64,000 bases of DNA from Bacillota bacterium (GCA_015059285.1 SVAS01000002.1:2572-66571), one strand, 5' to 3'. Numbered from the stretch's first letter, positions 12,564-30,650 are shown. Notes: generated by a model from the letters alone, not told the origin. Translations and numbers: made by a program.

Positions 12564-13655
12564 TTATATTCCTGATTTTCTTCTATTACATTCTCTGCAT
12601 AACATTTGACAATTTTCTGGTGTTGTTTTACCACCTAAATGCCATGGAGTTATATGATCAGCTTCCATTTCCTCTATTTCAAAATGTTCTTTACAATTAG
12701 AACAAATACCTTTTTGTCTTTGATAAGCTTCTCTTTTTTGATTATCTGTAAAAGACCTAATACTTAAATATTTTTCTTTGCCAGTTATCAAATAATAATA
12801 TATCCCTGATTTTTTAGTTACATCATCATCTTTTAATAATTTTTGAATTTGCATTTCTAGTTTATCAGAATTATATTTTTGATCTTTATATTGGTTAAAT
12901 AAATTGCCCCAATCTAACCCTTTCATCTCTTTTCGATAAACTGGAAATAACCTCTTAACCCAATCTATAACATCTTGATAATACATCCATAATTCATTGG
13001 CATCATTATCATGTTGATGTTCTGACATATAGTCTTCAATTGTTTTACTATCTTTAGCAGAAATCCAATATAAAACTTTCTCTAAATAATCTTGTCTAAT
13101 AGTTGAACCACTCATGTATTTTTCACCAATTTGATAGGCAGGACAAGCAGTTTTACTAAAATGTCTTTTAGCATCAGTTAACCATTCTCCAGTATAAATT
13201 GCATTTCTTAATTCTTGATCTGTTAATTTTTCTCCAGCAATATTTATTATCTTAAACCAATCTTGTATTTCTTTATCATTACCTTTGCAAAAATAAATTA
13301 ATAATTTATAATTTAAAATATGATTTCTTTCAGTCTCTGTTAAATTGTGGAAAGCTCTACTATTGATAGAATAACTACCATCTACATATTCACAAATACT
13401 TATTGTTCTTTGTTGTCCATCTAATACTTCATATGTACCATCATCATTGCATATCCAGTACATAACATTCAACGGAAAATCACTATTAACACTATTAATA
13501 ACTTCATTTCTTTGTTTTTCATTATAAACAAATTCTCTTTGATATTTAGGTCTTATATTTAATTTACCACCATATCCTACAACACCATTCTCATCATCAT
13601 TAACATAATCTTTCACAACCTCACTAACAGGTATTTCTTTTAATTTAATTTCCAT
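12564..13655 (-). CDS. DUF262 (ParB-like nuclease, DGQQR motif) + C-terminal HNH endonuclease; GmrSD-like restriction nuclease
   Basis: YQREFVY ... LDGQQRTISI in the N-terminal DUF262. C-terminus DHITPWHLGGKTTPENCQMLCRECNRRK is a canonical HNH. 11-nt overlap with the upstream methyltransferase gene suggests an operon. Confidence 0.75.
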   Translation of the reverse strand: MEIKLKEIPVSEVVKDYVNDDENGVVGYGGKLNIRPKYQREFVYNEKQRNEVINSVNSDFPLNVMYWICNDDGTYEVLDGQQRTISICEYVDGSYSINSRAFHNLTETERNHILNYKLLIYFCKGNDKEIQDWFKIINIAGEKLTDQELRNAIYTGEWLTDAKRHFSKTACPAYQIGEKYMSGSTIRQDYLEKVLYWISAKDSKTIEDYMSEHQHDNDANELWMYYQDVIDWVKRLFPVYRKEMKGLDWGNLFNQYKDQKYNSDKLEMQIQKLLKDDDVTKKSGIYYYLITGKEKYLSIRSFTDNQKREAYQRQKGICSNCKEHFEIEEMEADHITPWHLGGKTTPENCQMLCRECNRRKSGI

Positions 13656-14751
13656 AATTTTTCTCCTCTTCTGTTTTTATTAATATTATTCTTGCATAAG
13701 GGACAACAGGATGCCCCTGTGAATCTAGCATATATAAATCTCCATCCACAGCTCCTTTGTGTTGAACTTCTTTACGATATTTTTTATGTTCCGGTTTATA
13801 GGGCTTTACTCCTATCTCCAAACCAGAGTTTGATATTCCTAAACCTAACAAATTAAATTGTTGAGGATTGTATTTATCAAGAAAAGTAATAGGAACTCCC
13901 ATATATCCATTGTAATCTTTAGGAATTTCTGTATATGAATTAATATTTATTGCATCAAAATTTTCATATTTTTGATATTTTTCTTTTGAATAAACTTCAT
14001 ATAATATCAATCTTTCATTATGCCTTTTCACTGGTAAATTCGTAAACCAACAAGATGTAGCAACTCTTACCATTTTTTTACCATCAATAATTTTATGGAA
14101 TTTTTCTGTACTTTCTGGAACAAAGAAATACATACCAACATTAAAATTTGTATATCCCGTTCTTATATTATCTTCTTTAAATAATTTAAAAATTTCTTTG
14201 TATGATAATGCATTTGTGTTGCCCATAATTATAAATTGTTTATTATATTCAATTAATTGTGCAACATACTCTCTAAATAAACTAAAAGGAGGATTGGTTA
14301 CAACAATATCAGATTCTTTTAATAATTCTATACATTCATCTGATCTAAAATCACCATCTTCTTTTAAATATGTTAATGTGTTTTTTTTGTTTTTAATTAA
14401 ATATTCAACATCCAACAAATCAGTAGCACCATCTTCATTATTGTCATCAACTTCTGTTATTTCTATCTTATAAGCTTTCTTATTGTCAGATAAAAGTAAT
14501 TGTGTATTTGCTACTGGCGATGTTGCATAACAAGTTGCGATTAGCTTTTTTAAGCCAAGAAAATTAAAATTCATTGCAAAGTATTTAAAAAAATTACTTT
14601 CATATGGATCATCACAATTACAAAATACAACTTTATCTTTAAATTCTTTCCTATAATTATTTAATTCTTTTTCTATATCTGATAATTGAGTGTAAAATTC
14701 ATCATTTTTTGCTTTATTTGCATTCCTTAAATCCTTATTTTTATTTGCCAT
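13645..14751 (-). CDS. N6-adenine DNA methyltransferase (NPPF motif IV; resembles EcoRI-methylase-like family)
   Basis: VVTNPPFSLFREY catalytic motif. N-terminal NDEFYTQ...VVFCNCDDP...SNFFKYF resembles M.EcoRI-family proteins (from memory, unverified). Confidence 0.65.
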   Translation of the reverse strand: MANKNKDLRNANKAKNDEFYTQLSDIEKELNNYRKEFKDKVVFCNCDDPYESNFFKYFAMNFNFLGLKKLIATCYATSPVANTQLLLSDNKKAYKIEITEVDDNNEDGATDLLDVEYLIKNKKNTLTYLKEDGDFRSDECIELLKESDIVVTNPPFSLFREYVAQLIEYNKQFIIMGNTNALSYKEIFKLFKEDNIRTGYTNFNVGMYFFVPESTEKFHKIIDGKKMVRVATSCWFTNLPVKRHNERLILYEVYSKEKYQKYENFDAININSYTEIPKDYNGYMGVPITFLDKYNPQQFNLLGLGISNSGLEIGVKPYKPEHKKYRKEVQHKGAVDGDLYMLDSQGHPVVPYARIILIKTEEEKNYGN

Positions 14752-14860
14752 ACTCGCACTTCCTAATAATTAAATTATATCATAAAAAAGCATCTTTTTT
14801 TGAATTTTGGTAATATTTTCCTTATAAAAATTAAATTTTAGCAAATAAAAAGAAAGAATT

Positions 14861-15715
14861 TTATCTTTCTTGTCTATTTTTTGATAATTCACTCACGATT
14901 AAATCTTCAGAATGCAAATTGTTATTTTTTCCTAATAATAAATTTTCATAAAACTTAACCAAATAACTTTTATCTTCTTTTACACCTAATTTATTATTAA
15001 AATAATTACTTCTAACTAAGGCATTTCTAAAATACACAGATTTCTCTTTAAATAAACTATTATCTACATTATACCCTAAACTAATTAAATATTTTTCTAT
15101 AAATAAAGCTGTTGTTCTTGTATTACCTTCTCTGAATGGATGTACTTGCCATATATTAGAAGAAAATTTAGTTATATTATTTATAACTTCCACTATATTC
15201 ATATCTTTATAATTTTTTTCTTTTTCTAAAGATATATCATATTCCAAAGATTCTTCTAAAGTTCTACAATCTCCATATGCTACAGAATCTTTATTTAAAA
15301 TAATTTCCGGTTTAGAAAAATCAACTACTCTAAAATTACCAGCAAACTCATAAACATCTTGAAATAGATATTTATGTACATATTTTAAATAATCTACAGA
15401 CAATTCAAATTTATCTTCTTGTAATAATTCTACAATTCTGGTTGAAACAAAATCACATTCTAATTCATTATAGTTTACTTCATTTTTCTTTTCTTTTTCT
15501 ACATAATAATTTCTTAATTCTTCTTTTACTTGATCTAAACTTAATTTACCAACAATATTTTCTTCTAAAAGTTCTTCAAGTTGTTTAGAAGGTTTTAAGT
15601 TATCAACTTCTTGCAAACCAATAGCCATATCCCATTGAATCTGTTTTATATAATTATTAGTTTGATATACTTCTTCATATTCATTAACACTTGAATCAAA
15701 TTCTTTTTCATTCAT
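14861..15715 (-). CDS. Fic/DOC family protein (putative AMPylator/toxin)
   Basis: HPFREGNTRTTALF matches the Fic active-site motif HPFx[DE]GNGRxxR. Confidence 0.75.
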   Translation of the reverse strand: MNEKEFDSSVNEYEEVYQTNNYIKQIQWDMAIGLQEVDNLKPSKQLEELLEENIVGKLSLDQVKEELRNYYVEKEKKNEVNYNELECDFVSTRIVELLQEDKFELSVDYLKYVHKYLFQDVYEFAGNFRVVDFSKPEIILNKDSVAYGDCRTLEESLEYDISLEKEKNYKDMNIVEVINNITKFSSNIWQVHPFREGNTRTTALFIEKYLISLGYNVDNSLFKEKSVYFRNALVRSNYFNNKLGVKEDKSYLVKFYENLLLGKNNNLHSEDLIVSELSKNRQER

Positions 15716-15779
15716 AAGATAACCTCCTTAATTAAAAAATTATATTTCTAATATCACTTTAACATTAAAAATAAATATT

Positions 15780-17633
15780 TTAAATTTTTCTTACAGAATC
15801 ATATGCAATTGATATTTTCTCAAATATATTATCTGTTTCATTAATTAATATTTTTTTAACTTTATCTATATTTTTTATAAAATTAAACAAAGAGTATGTA
15901 TTTTTTTCGGAATCTCTATATACATCTATATAATCAATATAAAATGAAATTGTATCATTTACAATATCGTACAAAAAACCTACAGTTGTTTCCATTTGCA
16001 AATTTTTATTTCCATGAAATTGTTTGTTTCTTAAATAATACGAATTCATTAACAATTCTTTTGCTTCATTATGAAACTTTTGAAAATATAATTCGTATTG
16101 AGATACTAGTTTTATAACTTGTTCATATTTCCAAGTCAAAAAATCACAATTATTTGGATTTCTTTTATCAAAATTTAAAAAAATATTTTCTACAAAATTA
16201 TTACTTAATTTATTAAACCCTTTATACATTTTATTAATTTGCACTGCGGTTAAATATATATATCCTGATATCATTCTATCTGCTACCAAATAACTTCCAT
16301 ATTCCTCTAATGATTTAGAAATATTATCCCCTGCATTTCTAAATAAAGTTTCCAAAGCAAACCAAGTATTAGTAAACTTAGTTAATGTTGATTCTGAATT
16401 CTTATAATACGGCAACAATTGGACTGCCTCATCTATAATTTTATTGATATCATTATCACTATTATCAATAATATATCTTTTAAATACGTCTGAATACGCA
16501 ATTCTATCTTGTGTTAATGGTTTAAAAATATCATCATAAAAATTATAATAATTTATAAATTTTTTCTGCTCTTTGTGTTCTATTAAAAGATAATCTCCTA
16601 CAGCTCCCACTTTTATTCCAGAATATAGCATTGAACCAATAAACGGTTGAAGTACTTTCTGTTTAAATTTACGAATTGCTTGCCATATATCTTTACTATA
16701 AATTTCTGATGATAAATAATAATTATTATCATCCTTTATTTTTAAATTACTGATAATTTCTGTTAAAATTTTTTTATTATTAATTTTTGAGTCCTCTAAA
16801 AATTTAACTAATCCAGACTTACTATATATAATATAATTATTATTTCCAGATTGTTTTAATGCATTTAATAATTTTTCATCAAAATCTTTATCCATTTTTA
16901 TAAATATCGTATACTTATTGTCTGTACCATATTGTTCTGCAAACTTAATAAACATATCACTAAAAGAAGAAAAAGACTTTCTCTTAAAAAAATTTCTATA
17001 CGCATCACGTATTATTTTTTTAATTTCAAAAATACTTATTCCTATATAATCTATCAATAAAGCAAAATATTCATTAGACAATTCTGCTATTTTATCAAAA
17101 TTATCATATTTAATCTCTTTATTTGTTACTAAATCATATAAGTTATCTGATATAGTATCAAAATACTTATTATTAATTAAACTTATATAAATTAATTTTA
17201 AATTTTCTATTAAATTTAAATCATCATTTTCATTAATAAATTGAATATATCTTTTTTTATGATCTTCATTTATAAATTTATTGGTTTTTATAGCATCTCT
17301 TATATAATCTATTTTGTATTTTGGAATTTTAGCCATTTTTTCTTTAGTTTCAAATTGTTTATTTATATCCTCATAATAAGAAATTATTTTATTTATTTTT
17401 CCTAATAATGAATTGTTCAAGTTTCTACTTCCCAACATAGAAATACTACTTAAATTTTCTATAATATAGTTTAAAAAGAACATCATATTTCTATTCTTTA
17501 ATCCAATTTTTTCAAAATCATTATTACAGACAATATTTTTACTAGAAAAAAGCAATTGTTTAATAAATCTTTCTTTATTTTCCAAAACCTTACTACTTGT
17601 TAACAAATACTCTTCCTTAACCATATTACACAT
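15780..17633 (-). CDS. Large (617 aa) uncharacterised protein with C-terminal HEPN-like Rx4H motif (LRNKQFHG); putative abortive-infection/defense effector
   Basis: No NTPase motifs. The C-terminal helical region ...TWFALETLFRNAGD...YYLRNKQFHGNKN is suggestive of a HEPN RNase fold. Located in the defense cargo. Confidence 0.35.
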   Translation of the reverse strand: MCNMVKEEYLLTSSKVLENKERFIKQLLFSSKNIVCNNDFEKIGLKNRNMMFFLNYIIENLSSISMLGSRNLNNSLLGKINKIISYYEDINKQFETKEKMAKIPKYKIDYIRDAIKTNKFINEDHKKRYIQFINENDDLNLIENLKLIYISLINNKYFDTISDNLYDLVTNKEIKYDNFDKIAELSNEYFALLIDYIGISIFEIKKIIRDAYRNFFKRKSFSSFSDMFIKFAEQYGTDNKYTIFIKMDKDFDEKLLNALKQSGNNNYIIYSKSGLVKFLEDSKINNKKILTEIISNLKIKDDNNYYLSSEIYSKDIWQAIRKFKQKVLQPFIGSMLYSGIKVGAVGDYLLIEHKEQKKFINYYNFYDDIFKPLTQDRIAYSDVFKRYIIDNSDNDINKIIDEAVQLLPYYKNSESTLTKFTNTWFALETLFRNAGDNISKSLEEYGSYLVADRMISGYIYLTAVQINKMYKGFNKLSNNFVENIFLNFDKRNPNNCDFLTWKYEQVIKLVSQYELYFQKFHNEAKELLMNSYYLRNKQFHGNKNLQMETTVGFLYDIVNDTISFYIDYIDVYRDSEKNTYSLFNFIKNIDKVKKILINETDNIFEKISIAYDSVRKI

Positions 17634-17710
17634 CCTTTATACATCTATATTATATCATAACAAGATATATTTTTATAATTAAATATAGATCTTAATACCC
17701 AATCCTCAGT

Positions 17711-17729
17711 TACAGTGGCAAATGCACTC
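17711..17729. repeat. Right terminal inverted repeat of intervening element (tacAGTGGCAAATGcactc)
   Basis: Reverse complement of the left IR core CATTTGCCACT. Confidence 0.6.
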
Positions 17730-17730
17730 C

Positions 17731-17993
17731 CCACCTCCCGCATTTATGTGATTAGATATAACTATAACATCACTATTATTCCCATAGGCATCCAAAACTC
17801 TTCTAACTCTTTCATTAGGATTAACAGTTTCATCCATCATTCTAGTCATTTTTACTGGTATCCCCAATTCATTTAAGCGATTATAAATATAATTGGATAT
17901 TTTTAAAGTTAATTCTTTTTCTATTATTCCGCCACCTACAGCACCACCGTCAGTTCCTCCATGTCCCGCATCAATTACAATTTTATAATTCAT
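17731..17993 (-). pseudogene. N-terminal fragment of the split Amidase_3 gene (MNYKIVIDAGHGG...SNHINAGGG), terminated by element-derived codons ECICHCN*
   Basis: DAGHGG, EK..L.I, MTR, and SNHINAGGG motifs of the MurNAc-LAA (Amidase_3) N-terminal half. The reading frame runs into the element and stops after 7 codons. Confidence 0.65.
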
Positions 17994-18068
17994 GAAATAT
18001 TCCTCCTCAAAATATTTTATGATAAATGTCTACATATGTTCAAATTTAGAGCCAACAAAAAAAGAGTA

Positions 18069-19184
18069 TTATTCAATACTCTTAGTTAATTCAACTTTCA
18101 CATCTTTAATTTTACCACTACGGTAATACTTAATTTCTACTTTATCACCAACTTGATGTTTATAAAGCAAGAAACGGAAATGAGCAATGCTTTTAATTTC
18201 AGTTCCATCAAATTGTAAAAGTATATCTCCTTTTTTTAAGCCTGCATTAAAAGCAGGGCTTCCTTTTTCTACTTCAACAACAGCAATACCATTAGTAACA
18301 TCATCTGGAATAATTATATTGTTTCTATATAAAGCAAAAGTATCGCTTATATCTAACATACTAACACCAAGTAATGGTCTTTGAACTTCTTCTCCAGCTT
18401 CTAACTGATCTACAGTAGCCATAACTAATTCAATCGGAATAGCAAATCCCATACCTTCTATTTCATCTTTTACTAATTTTAAAGAATTAACCCCAATTAC
18501 TTCACCATTGATATTACAAAGAGGTCCGCCACTATTCCCCGGATTAATCGCTGCATCAGTTTGAAGAACTTGCATCATAAATTCACCATTAGATAAACTA
18601 ACTTCTACAGTTCTATCTTTTCCAGATAAGATACCTTTAGTAACTGTACCCATATACTCTAGACCAAGTGGGGAACCAACTGTAAATAATGTATCCCCTA
18701 GTTCTAACGCATCACTATTTCCAATTTCAGCGACTGAAATAACTGCATCAGAAGAAATTGATAAAACTGCTATATCAGCATATGTGTCACTCCCTAATAC
18801 TGATGCCTCTACTGTTTGTCCAGAAGTATTAGTTATCTGAACATTATCAGCATCCTCTATAACATGATTATTAGTTATAATGTATCCATTTTTATCTTCT
18901 TTTTTGTAAACAAAACCTGTCCCACTACTAATTGTTTTACCATTTTTGTAAGATTCTATATACATAACAGCATCATACACTTTATCTAGAGAACTTTTAA
19001 TAGTATCTGTTTCTGTAATTGAAACTTCTTTAATAGTTCTTTCAGTCAACTCATTTTCAGGTATATATTTTATAACTACAATTGTACCTGTTACTCCTAC
19101 AAAAAGAGTTATAATAATTGTTAATAAATAAATTAATTTTTCTCTCATAAGTCCTCCTAAGCTAAATCTACTATATCGTGCCAA
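18069..19184 (-). CDS. htrA: HtrA/DegP-family serine protease (trypsin-like domain + PDZ), membrane-anchored
   Basis: N-terminal TM, catalytic TDAAINPGNSGGPL serine motif, C-terminal PDZ. Confidence 0.8.
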   Translation of the reverse strand: MARYSRFSLGGLMREKLIYLLTIIITLFVGVTGTIVVIKYIPENELTERTIKEVSITETDTIKSSLDKVYDAVMYIESYKNGKTISSGTGFVYKKEDKNGYIITNNHVIEDADNVQITNTSGQTVEASVLGSDTYADIAVLSISSDAVISVAEIGNSDALELGDTLFTVGSPLGLEYMGTVTKGILSGKDRTVEVSLSNGEFMMQVLQTDAAINPGNSGGPLCNINGEVIGVNSLKLVKDEIEGMGFAIPIELVMATVDQLEAGEEVQRPLLGVSMLDISDTFALYRNNIIIPDDVTNGIAVVEVEKGSPAFNAGLKKGDILLQFDGTEIKSIAHFRFLLYKHQVGDKVEIKYYRSGKIKDVKVELTKSIE

Positions 19185-20089
19185 TTATCTGGAAATCCAA
19201 TTCTATTTAAAATTCTATTTAATGGCACAACATCTACAATTCCATCTAAATGATCTACTTCATAACTAACTTCTCCTATTAAGTCATGGAATTCTTCTTC
19301 ACTTATCATTTGCTTTAACATGATAATAAGTGCGAATAAATCATTTTTACCAAAGATATATTCACCATCTGTCTTATCAATATCTAACATACGATGATAC
19401 TTATTATCTGGTATTTGTCTTTGCGTTCTATAATCGTATAAAATATCTTCATGAGCACATATATTTCTATAGTTTGCTAGTAAAGATATATATATTCCAA
19501 GTGTTTCCGCATCCATCTTATATAATTCAGCAATAAACATCCTATCATCTGATTTTAGTATGCTATAAAGTTCTGAAATAATTCCTAAAGATAAAACTTT
19601 TACTAAAATCCACATTGGAATATAACCATAATTATCAATATAATGCATTGTCGCAGTATGTTTACGACCATTCACTCTAATTTGCCTTTTCATCTTATTT
19701 AAAACATCTTTGACTTGACGAGTTTTAATAGCATCTTGAGTAAAATTTTTAGGATCTAAATAATCTTTTTCTTTATAACCATATTTTCTTGATAATTCAT
19801 AACTAATAATAGATTTTAAATTATTTTCTACTACTAATATATACTTAAACATAATATTTCTAACTTTGCGATCAAATAAAAACATACCATATAATTCTTC
19901 AAAAGTGGTTCCCTTAATAAAAGTATTGTCTTTATCTGAGCGCATAAAAAGATGACGATATCCACTAACAAAGAAGTAGTTTTCTCTAATAAGAACTTCT
20001 TTTGCTTTTCTAATATCGTTTATCATTAACCCCTTAGATGATAGAATTTCAATTTGTTCGTCTAACGTTTTAAATATCTTACTTTTCAT
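19157..20089 (-). CDS. Abi_2 (AbiD/AbiF-like) abortive infection family protein
   Basis: N-terminus MKSKIFKTLDEQIEILSSKGLMI...YFFVSGYRHLF matches Abi_2 family conserved start. 310 aa. Confidence 0.6.
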   Translation of the reverse strand: MKSKIFKTLDEQIEILSSKGLMINDIRKAKEVLIRENYFFVSGYRHLFMRSDKDNTFIKGTTFEELYGMFLFDRKVRNIMFKYILVVENNLKSIISYELSRKYGYKEKDYLDPKNFTQDAIKTRQVKDVLNKMKRQIRVNGRKHTATMHYIDNYGYIPMWILVKVLSLGIISELYSILKSDDRMFIAELYKMDAETLGIYISLLANYRNICAHEDILYDYRTQRQIPDNKYHRMLDIDKTDGEYIFGKNDLFALIIMLKQMISEEEFHDLIGEVSYEVDHLDGIVDVVPLNRILNRIGFPDNWHDIVDLA

Positions 20090-20928: not shown

Positions 20929-21349
20929 TTATCCTTTTATACGATATGTATCAATTGTTCTTTGTACTGCTAGTGATGGATCAAACACTTCATCAATTCT
21001 TTCTTTTCCTAATCTAGCAAGCCATAATTTTATTGGTTCCGCATTCTTACTAGGTATAGCCTCTATTATTCTAAACATTCCTTCTATATCAACTACATCT
21101 GTTAATCTATATTTACCATCCTGAGATTTCAATTTCAATTAGTCACAATTTGTGACCAGTTCATTTACTTCTTTTTGAAAGTCTTGATTTCAACACATTC
21201 CAATAATGTCTAGCATCTTTACTTTCAGTTAAAGCTCCAACAATATCAACAACACTAATATAATATTTATCTTCATTCTTATCCCATATAGTTCTTATGG
21301 TTTTATTATGAAACAATTTATTTATTAAGTGCTTATTTTCTTCTTTCAT
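20929..21349 (-). pseudogene. Disrupted gene (two adjacent same-strand ORFs, 62 + 69 aa) resembling a Bro-N/DinD-like DNA-damage-inducible protein
   Basis: ORF 21161..21349 (IRTIWDKNEDKYYISVVDIVGALTES) and ORF 20929..21138 (...EPIKLWLARLGKERIDE...) are separated by 22 bp. Together they resemble an N- and C-terminal half of one protein, consistent with a frameshift or stop disruption. Family assignment is weak. Confidence 0.3.
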
Positions 21350-21452: not shown

Positions 21453-21631
21453 ATCTCAAATAATTCTAAGTAGCAAGATTGGCGAAATAAATTTCGCTAT
21501 CTAGCTACTATAGGACAAGACAAGCTTGCCCTCAACAAGAAATCAAAGATTTCTTACATACGTGCTCTTATTATCATTCTTTTCAAAACCTTATTTCTAA
21601 CTTCGTATTACATTACTACAAATACTTAAGT

Positions 21632-22693
21632 CTAGATGACAGATTTTGAGATTTCGATAACTGGGCGCACACCGTAGTAGAAACCATCGTTGACGTTGAA
21701 GTAGTCAACGTAACCGTCGTAGCCCACGTACCAAGCGCTGCCCGCATAGTCCGCATAAGCAGAGCTTAGCCAGAAGCCATATGGTGGGTTGGATAAATTT
21801 CCATACAACCATGCTGGACATCCAACGTCATATTCTACACATCCTAACAAATCTATTGCTTCATCATGTGTTAACATTCGAGCTCTTGCATTTGTTCTTT
21901 CTATTGCGTATTGTCCTTGATCGTCTGCTAATGTATATGTTTTTGCTGGGATGTTTGTCCAACTACTTGTTTTACTTTCTAAGTAATTTAACGCTGTTAG
22001 TGGACCTTTTTCGTTTGTTGAACAATAATCTCCGGCTTCTCCACATCCATAGTCTTTTTCACTAATCCATGCTACTGTTTCTTCATCTACGTTTCTATCC
22101 ATGATTAATGTTAATGTCCCTGTTGTAGCATCGTCTTTTACTACGTAGAATGTCTTCGCGTCTTCTTTATCGTTTACTTTAACTTGTACTGCTATTCCTG
22201 CTTTTATCGCATCTTCACTACATGTTTCGTTTGCATTTGTGATACATGTTGCTGTTGATGTAATTATTGGGTTTGCTGCTTTTTTATATTCACAGCTTCC
22301 TTCATATTTTGTTGTTGTGATTGCACTTTCGCTTGTTGCTTTTGTTACACAATGTGCTCCATTATTTACAGCAATAGCAACTTTTCCATCTTTTGTTACT
22401 GTTATTTTTCCATTTGTTGGAAGTGCCCCCTTAACTTCTAGTTTGTTTTCTCCAACAAATTCTCCGTTTGTTATTGTAAACTCTACATCTGAAGCCATTC
22501 CATTTTCTAATAGTGAACTTGCATAATACATCTCTCCTGCATCAATAAGTCCATATGCAGTATCTTCAAATGCACTTTCTCTTGCACTACTGATAATGTT
22601 CATTATTACTGGTACTGCAATAAGCGCTATAATTGCTAGTATCACTATTACTGCTAGTAACTCGATCAATGTAAACCCTTTATCTTTTCTCAT
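21632..22693 (-). CDS. DGR target protein: type IV pilin-like (class III signal peptide MRKDKG|FTLIELLAVIVIL, Glu+5) N-terminus with C-terminal C-type-lectin-fold variable domain
   Basis: Canonical prepilin cleavage and methylation motif. C-terminal ...AWLYGNLSNPPYGFWLSSAYADYAGSAWYVGYDGYVDYFNVNDGFYYGVRPVI carries the VR. Start moved to the ATG at 22693, 5 nt after GGTGGTGA (track used an upstream GTG). Confidence 0.8.
   Translation of the reverse strand: MRKDKGFTLIELLAVIVILAIIALIAVPVIMNIISSARESAFEDTAYGLIDAGEMYYASSLLENGMASDVEFTITNGEFVGENKLEVKGALPTNGKITVTKDGKVAIAVNNGAHCVTKATSESAITTTKYEGSCEYKKAANPIITSTATCITNANETCSEDAIKAGIAVQVKVNDKEDAKTFYVVKDDATTGTLTLIMDRNVDEETVAWISEKDYGCGEAGDYCSTNEKGPLTALNYLESKTSSWTNIPAKTYTLADDQGQYAIERTNARARMLTHDEAIDLLGCVEYDVGCPAWLYGNLSNPPYGFWLSSAYADYAGSAWYVGYDGYVDYFNVNDGFYYGVRPVIEISKSVI
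21661..21765 (-). repeat. DGR variable region (VR) at 3' end of target gene
   Basis: 105-bp region about 80% identical to TR 23054..23158. 19 of 21 differences fall at TR adenine positions (AAC/AAT codons in TR vs TAC/GGC/TTC/GAC/AGC/GAT etc. in VR). The 3' boundary is a GC-rich CTGGGCGCACACCG block (IMH-like) in a 27% GC context. Confidence 0.8.
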
Positions 22694-23053
22694 ATCTATC
22701 ACCACCTATCGTTTCATTCTATTATCAGTTTAGCAGTTTTTTATTATTTTCTTTTGTTGTATTACTATTTGTTTTATACTTTTTTCTTTTTTCGACTTTT
22801 TTCTCTCTCTTTTTTACTGCTACTCTGACTTTATTTATTATACATTTTTATCTATCTTCAATTTGTTTTATAACATAAATATTTCAACAAAAAAATCGTA
22901 GTGAACAGACTACTTCATTTTCAATTTCTTTACTAGTGAATTCATCATCTACGATATAGTATTCCTTAAAGTTACCTTTAAGAGGAAAAACACTTGTTTT
23001 CTTTAGCTTTTATTTACTAACCTTAGTCCAGTAAAACGTAGTTTTAAAGAAAT

Positions 23054-23158
23054 CTGGGCGCACACCGTAGTTGTTGTCATTGTTGACGTTGTTGTTGTTA
23101 ACGTTACCGTCGTTGTTCACGTTCCAAGCGTTGTTAGCATTGTCCGCATTAGCAGAGC
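23054..23158 (-). repeat. DGR template region (TR), AAC-rich (13 AAC + 3 AAT codons)
   Basis: Lies in the non-coding gap between the RT gene and the target. On the coding (minus) strand it reads ...AAT GCG GAC AAT GCT AAC AAC GCT TGG AAC GTG AAC AAC GAC GGT AAC GTT AAC AAC AAC AAC GTC AAC AAT GAC AAC AAC TAC GGT GTG CGC CCA G. Confidence 0.8.
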
Positions 23159-29981: not shown

Positions 29982-30650
29982 TTAATTATTACTAATTTTT
30001 TTCTTTCTAATCACTATAACACTTATTAATCCAATTAAAGAAATTACTAACAAGATAATACTTGTTCCTACATTATCATTCGTTTGTGGATTTTCAGGTG
30101 AGGAAATAGACGATGAAATTATTTCCCACTGTGCATAAAATGTCCTATTGCTATCAATTCCTGATTCAGCTAAAATAAGTTCTAATTTTGTGCCACCAGT
30201 CTTTTCTGTATAATAACCCAAAAATTTATAACCTTCTCTAGTAGGTGTTTCTAATGCACTTTCCATTCCTATTTCCCATTTTTCAATAGTTAAAGTATCA
30301 CCAGTTGTAAAATTCCCACCATTTGCATCAAATATAACTTTATATTTTTCATTGTTAAAAACTAAAATTGTGCTGCCTATTGAAACATTATAATCCCCTA
30401 AAGTCCTTCCGTTTTCCATTTCGTTATCGTCAAATATTAATTTTTGATTTTCAGGTAAAAAACTATTATCTAATTGATAGATTTTTTCTTTTACCGCTTC
30501 TATTGTATCAGATGATTCCACTTCTAAAGTTATTTGTCCTATAGATGGTTTTTGTACAACTATTTGCATAGCACTTATTTTTGGTATATAAATAAATACA
30601 AAGAAGAATATAATAAATGGGATTATTTTATATTTTTTCACATTAATCAC
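29982..30650 (-). CDS. Secreted protein predicted to be anchored by sortase B (NPQTN motif): signal peptide + ubiquitin-like domain (about 45% identical to eukaryotic ubiquitin) + Listeria/Bacteroides (Flg_new) repeat + NPQTN sorting signal
   Basis: The mature N-terminus MQIVVQKPSIGQITLEVESSDTIEAVKEKI...QKLIF...ENGRTLGDYN...ST aligns with ubiquitin [30 protein letters not shown]...QRLIF...EDGRTLSDYN...ST. Then KVIFDANGGNFTTGDT...YKFLGYYTEKTGG. C-terminus ENPQTN + hydrophobic stretch + RKKK. Confidence 0.55.
   Translation of the reverse strand: MINVKKYKIIPFIIFFFVFIYIPKISAMQIVVQKPSIGQITLEVESSDTIEAVKEKIYQLDNSFLPENQKLIFDDNEMENGRTLGDYNVSIGSTILVFNNEKYKVIFDANGGNFTTGDTLTIEKWEIGMESALETPTREGYKFLGYYTEKTGGTKLELILAESGIDSNRTFYAQWEIISSSISSPENPQTNDNVGTSIILLVISLIGLISVIVIRKKKISNN

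Follow-up and report, generated by a model that had tools for sequence, protein, structure and literature searches.

Apart from the diversity-generating retroelements (DGRs), no system is known, in bacteria, in archaea or in viruses of either, that can rewrite a protein binding site at will, and what a DGR can do is decided by the carrier of its variable protein. A hypervariable type IV pilin is found in Neisseria, where PilE is accompanied by many partial or silent paralogues in the genome. Type IV pilins may also be modular: the Streptococcus sanguinis pilins PilB and PilC bear a vWA module and a lectin module, respectively (PMC8179133, PMC9934059). Pilin-type proteins have been named among the targets of DGRs, where ‘putative pilin structures’ are cited among the DUF1566 targets of candidate-phyla bacteria (PMC6642488) and a ‘GspG-type pilin’ domain is listed among the rare domains that hold a variable repeat (VR) (PMC11661182). 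Adhesins of the type V pilus of Bacteroides are diversified by a DGR (bioRxiv 10.1101/2024.11.15.621889); type IV pili, prepilin and Firmicutes are not mentioned in that report. Pilin carriers are also unmentioned in the main text of two large DGR surveys (PMC5758913, PMC8144416) and in the supplementary files of the second (PMC8144416).

Here we describe a DGR from a Bacillota bacterium, found in a stretch of 64,000 nucleotides (GCA_015059285.1, SVAS01000002.1:2572-66571; called the window below), which has a G+C content of 27%. Our reading, which we consider likely to be correct, is that this is an active chromosomal DGR, composed of an MSL (MutS-like) gene, a bAvd gene, a reverse transcriptase (RT) and a template repeat (TR), and that the protein it varies, which is modular and type IV pilin-like, is made for a type IV filament.

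The window encodes an LPXTG-anchored protein and cell-wall amidases, and genes for LtaS, PBP5 and sporulation are present on other contigs of the same MAG. This gene content is consistent with the host, an uncultured low-GC gut Firmicute, being a walled monoderm, and it agrees with the Gram-positive organism that was assumed in an earlier note on this DNA.

Organization of the DGR cassette

The features of the locus are listed in Table 1. In addition to its Pfam match, the bAvd gene matches the PHROG family ‘Avd protein of DGR’ (E 1.5e-18), and it scores 58.4 bits against NCBIfam DivGenRetAVD, which is under the cut-off of 80 for that model. In the scheme of Wu et al. (PMC5758913), the cassette corresponds to architecture D and to the accessory class named MSL, and an MSL gene also precedes bAvd in the related DGR loci L109–L112, described below.

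Table 1. Features of the DGR locus, with positions counted from the first nucleotide of the window.
Feature	Position	Strand	Basis
MSL (MutS-like) accessory gene, 141 aa	24744..25169	-	Pfam MutS_I, 30.1 bits
bAvd accessory gene, 118 aa	24406..24762	-	Pfam bAvd, 49.8 bits (cut-off 40)
DGR reverse transcriptase, 400 aa	23241..24443	-	Pfam RVT_1, 64.3 bits; PHROG reverse transcriptase, E 1.4e-86
Template repeat (TR), 105 nt	23054..23158	-	Alignment to VR; 37 adenines, 16 AAY codons
Target gene for the variable protein (modular, type IV pilin-like), 353 aa	21632..22693	-	ORF; NCBI MBE6144531.1
Class III signal leader peptide MRKDKG	22676..22693	-	N_methyl and TIGR02532 matches, conservation of G-1; cleavage after Gly6 predicted
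Pilin module, residues 7–132	22298..22675	-	α1 helix (model residues 9–63), then antiparallel β-sheet
C-terminal DUF6273/DUF1566-like C-type-lectin-fold module, residues 138–353	21635..22282	-	
Variable repeat (VR), codons 310–345 (...SSAYADYAGSAWYVGYDGYVDYFNVNDGFYYGVRP)	21661..21765	-	19/21 TR mismatches at TR adenines
Conserved 3' flank of VR: last 9 codons, stop codon and ~95 nt beyond	21536..21660	-	Near-identity with remote target L003:3822-4877

The TR starts 82 nt past the stop codon of the RT gene, and the target ORF follows 360 nt after it. The TR reads SANADNANNAWNVNNDGNVNNNNVNNDNNYGVRP, and with these AAY codons and adenines the computed number of possible protein variants is approximately 1.7e21. 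The TR and the VR have GGTGTGCGCCCAG in common and part directly after it. Over the 105 nt the two repeats differ by 21 mismatches, and the two that are not at TR adenines are silent changes in the third codon position. The earlier note described the VR as the last 35 or so residues of the protein: a VR that matches the TR is indeed at the 3' end of the gene, but nine further residues (VIEISKSVI) lie between it and the end of the protein.

The window contains one gene of the GFTLIE type (see below) and one VR. The conserved flank on the 3' side of the VR is a candidate cis element for target recognition, as judged from the comparison with the remote target. A GC-rich hairpin 3' of the VR is predicted to fold no better than shuffled sequence (z -1.49), and a scan for promoters and terminators around the cassette found nothing above chance in this AT-rich DNA.

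The DGR is active

Further copies of the locus were recovered from metagenome samples by exact-protein look-ups. The TR is identical in the loci L001, L116 and L118. The window, L116 and L118, which come from different samples, were compared over about 4.4 kb, spanning part of a T4SS-pilin-like gene, MSL, Avd, RT, TR, the target and its 3' flank. They are identical except for 37 columns, all of which lie at 21675–21757, inside the VR. The VR of L118 departs from the TR at 20 positions, every one of them an adenine site, while that of L116 has adenine-site changes together with one non-adenine change and a 3-nt insertion.

Protein databases give a similar picture. Four proteins that are identical outside the VR bear four different VRs. 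A set of 12 database proteins, among which 10 distinct VRs are represented, agrees fully with mutagenesis of the window TR at adenines only. One of the four proteins, P0367, shares the first half of the VR of the window and differs in the half proximal to the 3' end, a pattern that may reflect partial replacement of the VR from its 3' end. Many contigs with an identical RT stop either just past the RT or within the target just before the VR; such ends are expected at points where reads disagree or repeats confuse the assembler.

A difference of up to 37 columns in the VR, in about 4.3 kb of surroundings that are 100% identical, is difficult to reconcile with the idea that the DGR is a fossil, in which case old events or the mixing of paralogues during assembly would have caused the VR to differ from the TR and from one sample to another. 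On that explanation one might indeed expect some non-adenine differences from the TR, of which there are two in the VR of the window, and it would also fit the presence of the same VR in three assemblies (window, L001 and L002) and the look of some database proteins, which resemble chimeras of paralogues. It does not explain why the VR of L118 has no non-adenine changes, nor why the VRs of L116 and L118 match none of the paralogue VRs in the set examined, and the RT, Avd and MSL genes are all intact. We consider a fossil DGR to be extremely improbable. The DGR is demonstrably real and active: errors specific to adenines are made when the TR is reverse-transcribed, and the product takes the place of the VR in the 3' end of the target gene. 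The changes are therefore limited to the last part of the C-type-lectin-fold module.

The target has an N-terminal pilin module

The target ORF has its ATG start at 22693 and its stop codon at 21632–21634. A ribosome-binding site, AGGTGGTGA, is located 6–7 nt 5' of this ATG, and there is an in-frame GTG at 22705. The protein begins with MRKDKG followed by FTLIELLAVIVILAIIALIA, and is of the GFTLIE type (MRKDKG/FTLIE, with the slash at the predicted cleavage site). The protein consists, at its N-terminal end, of a class III signal peptide and a pilin module, with a leader that is short and basic and ends in Gly, followed by approximately 20 hydrophobic residues.

The earlier note had identified this N-terminus as a class III signal, on the basis of MRKDKG, Gly-1, Phe+1 and Glu+5, and had suggested an HMM search with the N_methyl model as a check. 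The search bears it out, and it is one of three checks proposed there whose outcome favors the reading of the note. The target scores 36.8 bits (E 2.3e-9) against Pfam N_methyl, whose curated cut-off is 21.2, and 34 bits against TIGR02532 (IV_pilin_GFxxxE), whose cut-off is 16.3. In an alignment of 114 homologues, of 42–93% identity, every sequence matches N_methyl; there is no variation at F+1, T+2, L+3 or E+5, and at least 90% of the sequences keep G-1. A profile of the target family was then compared with 177,635 PDB sequences, and type IV pilins were the sole matches: MshA (E 2.8e-10), S. sanguinis PilE1 (8.7e-9), and then pilins of Geobacter and Thermus.

The AlphaFold2 model of the target, built on the alignment, is a confident one (pLDDT 92.5, pTM 0.78) and has two modules. 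It places a helix at residues 9–63 and β-strands at residues 70–129, and the fold of a pilin, in which a long α1 helix packs on an antiparallel β-sheet, is thus predicted to be present in full.

The C-terminal module has a C-type-lectin fold

Structure comparison shows a clear similarity in fold between the C-terminal module and C-type-lectin/DUF6273 proteins, in keeping with the lectin-like domain that the earlier note had placed here. In a library of viral structures, the module matches DUF6273 proteins of gut phages with E values down to 2.9e-6; the fold is also found in the IgA protease of T. ramosa. Against the Pfam models, the target has no match to Lcl_C (DUF1566) at E ≤0.01, and scores 17.3 bits against DUF6273, under the cut-off of 23.5. 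Among the 114 homologues, seven match Lcl_C and 14 match DUF6273 (E ≤0.01). The module is therefore a distant relative of DUF6273 and Lcl_C by fold, and is not a member of either family under the cut-offs of the models themselves. The NCBI name for MBE6144531.1 is ‘DUF1566 domain-containing protein’.

There are 836 representatives of the C-terminal module at the level of 50% identity. In the best 150 of these, the N-terminus has a class III motif with E+5 in 67 cases and a pilin-like ‘KGFA(I/V)S’ without E+5 in 13; a further 32 have other hydrophobic N-termini, and 38 have none, many of the latter being fragments. The module is not exclusive to pilins. The target thus has the composition of a modular pilin in the sense of Raynaud et al. 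2021, in which the N-terminal pilin module is accompanied by a second, functional module that also occurs outside pilus biology.

Pilus assembly genes in relatives

The earlier note reported no prepilin peptidase or pilus assembly ATPase in the window, and we come to the same result. The window was searched by tblastn with E. coli GspE, HofB, GspF, HofC and GspO, and with CpaE, CpaF, TadB, TadC, TadE, PilC and PilD from relatives; the sole match was to a ParA-like gene. In four other loci of the species, which together with the window make up approximately 145 kb, genes for a prepilin peptidase, a T2SSE ATPase or a T2SSF platform were likewise not found. A database search with the CpaF of a relative returned only matches of at least 78% identity, none of them on contigs of this MAG or on other DGR-bearing contigs.

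In relatives, the link between family members and Tad-like or PilC/PilD genes is direct. One locus (L074) contains an operon of two TadE genes, a CpaE-like gene, a T2SSE ATPase gene (206 bits) and two T2SSF genes, after which two family members follow within 2 nt. In a second (L083) a family member is located directly 3' of a CpaF gene, and in a third (L067) a PilC-like double T2SSF gene and a Peptidase_A24 gene with its N-terminal domain precede a family member by about 2.7 kb. The L074 and L067 sequences align to residues 6–134 and 5–129 of the window protein, respectively, which in both cases is the whole pilin module; the L083 sequence aligns to residues 1–88.

These observations bear on another explanation, in which the pilin-like N-terminus is a membrane anchor only. 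The protein, cleaved or uncleaved, would then remain in the cytoplasmic membrane in the manner of a pseudopilin that is not assembled, with the lectin module that the DGR varies exposed at the surface of the membrane, and would at no time be polymerized into a filament. Glu at +5 is important for the assembly of type IV filaments and is dispensable for anchoring in the membrane. Its presence in all of the 114 homologues, together with that of F+1 and the retention of G-1 in at least 90%, is not what would be expected for an anchor, and neither is the passing of N_methyl by all 114. The full globular fold of the pilin, which is retained in the model, and the position of family members directly after the T2SSE/T2SSF operons of L074 and L083 also argue for filament assembly. 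The anchor explanation does account for the failure to find assembly genes in the approximately 145 kb of the species, for the scattering of at least 12 paralogues singly among housekeeping genes, and for the occurrence of the C-terminal module on ordinary signal or transmembrane anchors in 32 of the best 150 representatives. On balance we think it unlikely, with perhaps one chance in several, and we prefer to regard the target as a protein made for a type IV filament.

Paralogues and further targets in the species

The species has at least 12 paralogues of the target, each approximately 330–370 residues long and with an identical α1N, scattered singly among housekeeping genes. Some paralogues are placed on a contig of 575,737 bp. 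Three additional paralogue loci were examined, and these have only housekeeping neighbors and no pilus operon.

One remote paralogue, at L003:3822-4877 (of the MBE6144073.1 type), was compared with the TR at the DNA level over a VR of 99 nt. Of the adenine positions 24 out of 33 are changed, and of the other positions none out of 66. Its 3' flank is near-identical to that of the window target for approximately 125 nt past the VR, at which point the similarity ends. One TR thus serves at least two genes in the species, the window target and the remote paralogue on L003. The VR of a further protein, MBE6143986.1, compared at the protein level only, can likewise be accounted for in full by mutagenesis of the window TR at adenines. 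MBE6144531.1 (the window protein), MBE6143986.1 and MBE6144073.1 (the L003a type) represent three TR-compatible backbones, and from their NCBI accession numbers they appear to belong to one MAG.

The other paralogues have 9–29 non-adenine mismatches to the TR and unrelated 3' flanks, and look like former targets or non-targets. We also considered as a second target the paralogue P0002, which is 90% identical, and ruled it out, since it differs from the TR at 12 positions that are not adenines, its GC-rich end is degenerate, and its 3' flank is unrelated.

Related DGRs and distribution of the family

Homologues of the RT form more than 120 clusters of 62–100% identity, all of them in contigs from cellular metagenomes. 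A scan of metagenomes with the RT alignment gave mostly contigs too short to include targets. Six related DGRs, with RTs that are 64–71% identical, have enough flanking DNA for analysis (L109, L110, L111, L112, L091 and L094), and each of these loci contains an MSL gene, bAvd, RT and a target of the GFTLIE type. For three of the six, the mismatches between TR and VR fall at adenines in 22 of 23 (L109), 14 of 15 (L110) and 22 of 22 (L112) cases. The association of the DGR with a pilin-like target is conserved across species. Conversely, none of the 78 GTDB loci with family members has a related RT within 10 kb, and the majority of the family is therefore encoded away from any DGR.

The variable protein of a DGR can also be the receptor-binding protein of a phage, as in Bordetella phage BPP-1, and we considered whether the locus might be part of a prophage or mobile element with such a function. 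The closest RTs among the 2.9 million contigs of IMG/VR are only 27–34% identical, and we therefore conclude that this is a cellular DGR lineage rather than one of phages. The cassette lies between housekeeping genes, and related cassettes are found in differing chromosomal contexts, for example ftsH/tilS and parAB; phage structural genes were not found nearby, and the N-terminus of the target is a class III signal, which is absent from tail fibers. What a phage origin does have in its favor is the resemblance of the C-terminal module to DUF6273 proteins of gut phages, and the presence downstream of an endolysin-like amidase, a split Bro-N-like gene, and Abi, Fic and restriction genes. We regard it as very remote, and the following discussion takes the locus to be a chromosomal DGR with a pilin-like target.

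A proposed mode of action

From the features described above we infer that the target is cleaved as a prepilin and incorporated into a pilus. The prepilin would be inserted into the membrane, where a prepilin peptidase would cut after Gly6; a peptidase of the PilD type would also N-methylate Phe7. The protein would then be lifted from the membrane by a type IV filament machine, and the machines of the relatives are of the Tad/CpaF or PilC/PilD type. Because the second module is bulky, the most likely position for the protein is the tip, either of a pilus or of a short pseudopilus, as has been proposed for modular pilins (PMC8179133). The hypervariable ligand-binding face would in this way be displayed beyond the wall of the cell, a monoderm of the gut, and its ligands would probably be glycans or proteins on the surfaces of host, food particles or microbes. 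Should the protein become part of a filament, then a repertoire in the order of 1e21 lectin-like binding sites could be pushed through the wall on a retractable or extendable fiber.

More tentatively, and with rather less than even confidence, we suggest that a single MSL-Avd-RT element rewrites, in cis and in trans, several of the lectin tips of at least 12 modular type IV pilins assembled by a Tad-like or PilC/PilD machine, and that the paralogues that do not match the TR are an archive of tips that were once diversified. If this is true, a clade of uncultured gut Bacilli possesses a programmable hypervariable adhesive pilus, which would be a third route to hypervariation of pilins, after gene conversion in Neisseria and the type V pilus DGRs of Bacteroides. 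Such a filament would bear on how these poorly known gut Bacilli, which have small genomes, attach to hosts, food particles or other microbes. For pilus biology, the locus provides a case from nature in which the functional module of a modular pilin is evolving in real time.

Comparison with known systems

The DGR itself is ordinary, and its variable fold is of the usual C-type-lectin type: the DGR variable proteins TvpA of Treponema denticola, LdtA of Legionella and Mtd of Bordetella phage have a C-type-lectin fold, as is the case here. The route to the surface is different. LdtA reaches it as a lipoprotein, and the others by means of other signals or at the tip of a phage tail fiber, whereas here the carrier is a module of type IV pilin origin, preceded by a signal peptide of class III. 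The C-terminal domain of Legionella Lcl (Pfam Lcl_C, formerly DUF1566; PDB 8q4e) belongs to a protein that is neither a pilin nor a DGR target.

The earlier note considered a pilus-incorporated protein with a hypervariable tip to be an unusual mode of DGR-driven diversification in a Gram-positive organism. This needs to be narrowed, since modular pilins, DGR targets of pilin type mentioned in passing, and the Bacteroides pilus DGR were already known (PMC8179133, PMC6642488, PMC11661182), while the pilin module as carrier is new. The novelty is therefore in the carrier: a conserved, active, multi-target lineage of DGRs, with modular type IV pilin-like targets, in uncultured gut Bacilli.

The modular pilins of S. 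sanguinis are like the target in having a small pilin module, a short linker and a bulky ligand-binding module, in being found in a monoderm host, and in their predicted position at the tip of the filament. They are, however, genetically fixed and encoded in a pil locus, whereas here the C-type-lectin/DUF6273 module is rewritten by a retroelement and the genes are scattered. The type V pilus DGR of Bacteroides resembles what we propose in that a gut commensal varies the adhesive component of a pilus by means of a DGR; it is nevertheless an unrelated system, in a diderm, which is built by strand exchange of lipoprotein precursors. In Neisseria the major pilin is varied, by RecA-dependent gene conversion from pilS cassettes, whereas here a reverse transcriptase rewrites a lectin module grafted onto a pilin.

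VR length and contig ends

The locus of the DGR target (window 21632-22693) was recovered from another metagenome sample with a natural VR variant (L116:3001-4065). Compared with the TR, this VR is altered at one non-adenine position and has gained 3 nt through duplication of a GTC codon. A 6-nt deletion is seen in the remote paralogue that matches the same TR (L003:3822-4877). We therefore conclude that the lengths of these VRs do change in-frame. Contigs from other samples with an identical RT (L086, L087 and L088) often stop right past the RT, or within the target just short of the VR, which is consistent with assembly breaks arising from VR heterogeneity, or from TR/VR and paralogue repeats.

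Genes around the cassette and its target

The neighboring features are collected in the table.

Features flanking the DGR cassette and its target
Feature	Window coordinates	Strand	Evidence
Defence-type island, past the target	12564-20089	-	Domain matches
Short ORFs just 3' of the target	20929-21138 and 21161-21349	-	Both match PHROG phrog_15286
T4SS_pilin-like protein, 172 aa	25339-25857	-	Pfam T4SS_pilin PF18895, 34.1 bits
Small surface protein, LPXTG anchor	29982-30650	-	TIGR01167, 18.4 bits vs 15.9

The two short ORFs match successive stretches (7-56 and 69-136) of phrog_15286, which is 274 long, and are therefore a single gene, broken by a frameshift or stop codon. The defence-type island encodes GmrSD_N+HNH, EcoRI_methylase, Fic, a truncated Amidase_3, an HtrA-like protease and Abi_2, together with a 617-aa protein that gave no family match. 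At L110, a related DGR is adjoined by a Bro-N gene.

On the other side, the T4SS_pilin-like gene lies immediately 5' of the DGR MSL gene in the window species, and is missing beside the related DGRs at L109-L112. It may be a leftover of a conjugative element. The LPXTG protein also contains a ubiquitin-like domain and Flg_new/Listeria-Bacteroides repeats, and its presence supports a cell-walled monoderm host.

Pilins in relatives and N-termini without Glu+5

Two loci from MAGs of related gut Bacilli (L074:4983-12795 and L083:7181-10510) contain a Tad-type operon, comprising two TadE genes, a CpaE-like gene and CpaF. In both, the operon is followed by large GFTLIE-type pilins rather than short Flp pilins; those of L074 are approximately 450 aa long, and are separated from CpaF by two T2SSF (TadB/TadC-like) genes. 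The pairing of Tad-like machinery with pilins having a type IVa-style signal is unusual.

The C-terminal module is also found on another kind of N-terminus: 13 of its 150 best representatives (from 836 at 50% identity), among them P0380, P0392, P0399, P0420, P0443, P0467 and P0488, start with MKNNKGFA(I/V)SS. This sequence is pilin-like except that it has no Glu+5, a residue likewise missing from tip pseudopilins like GspK.
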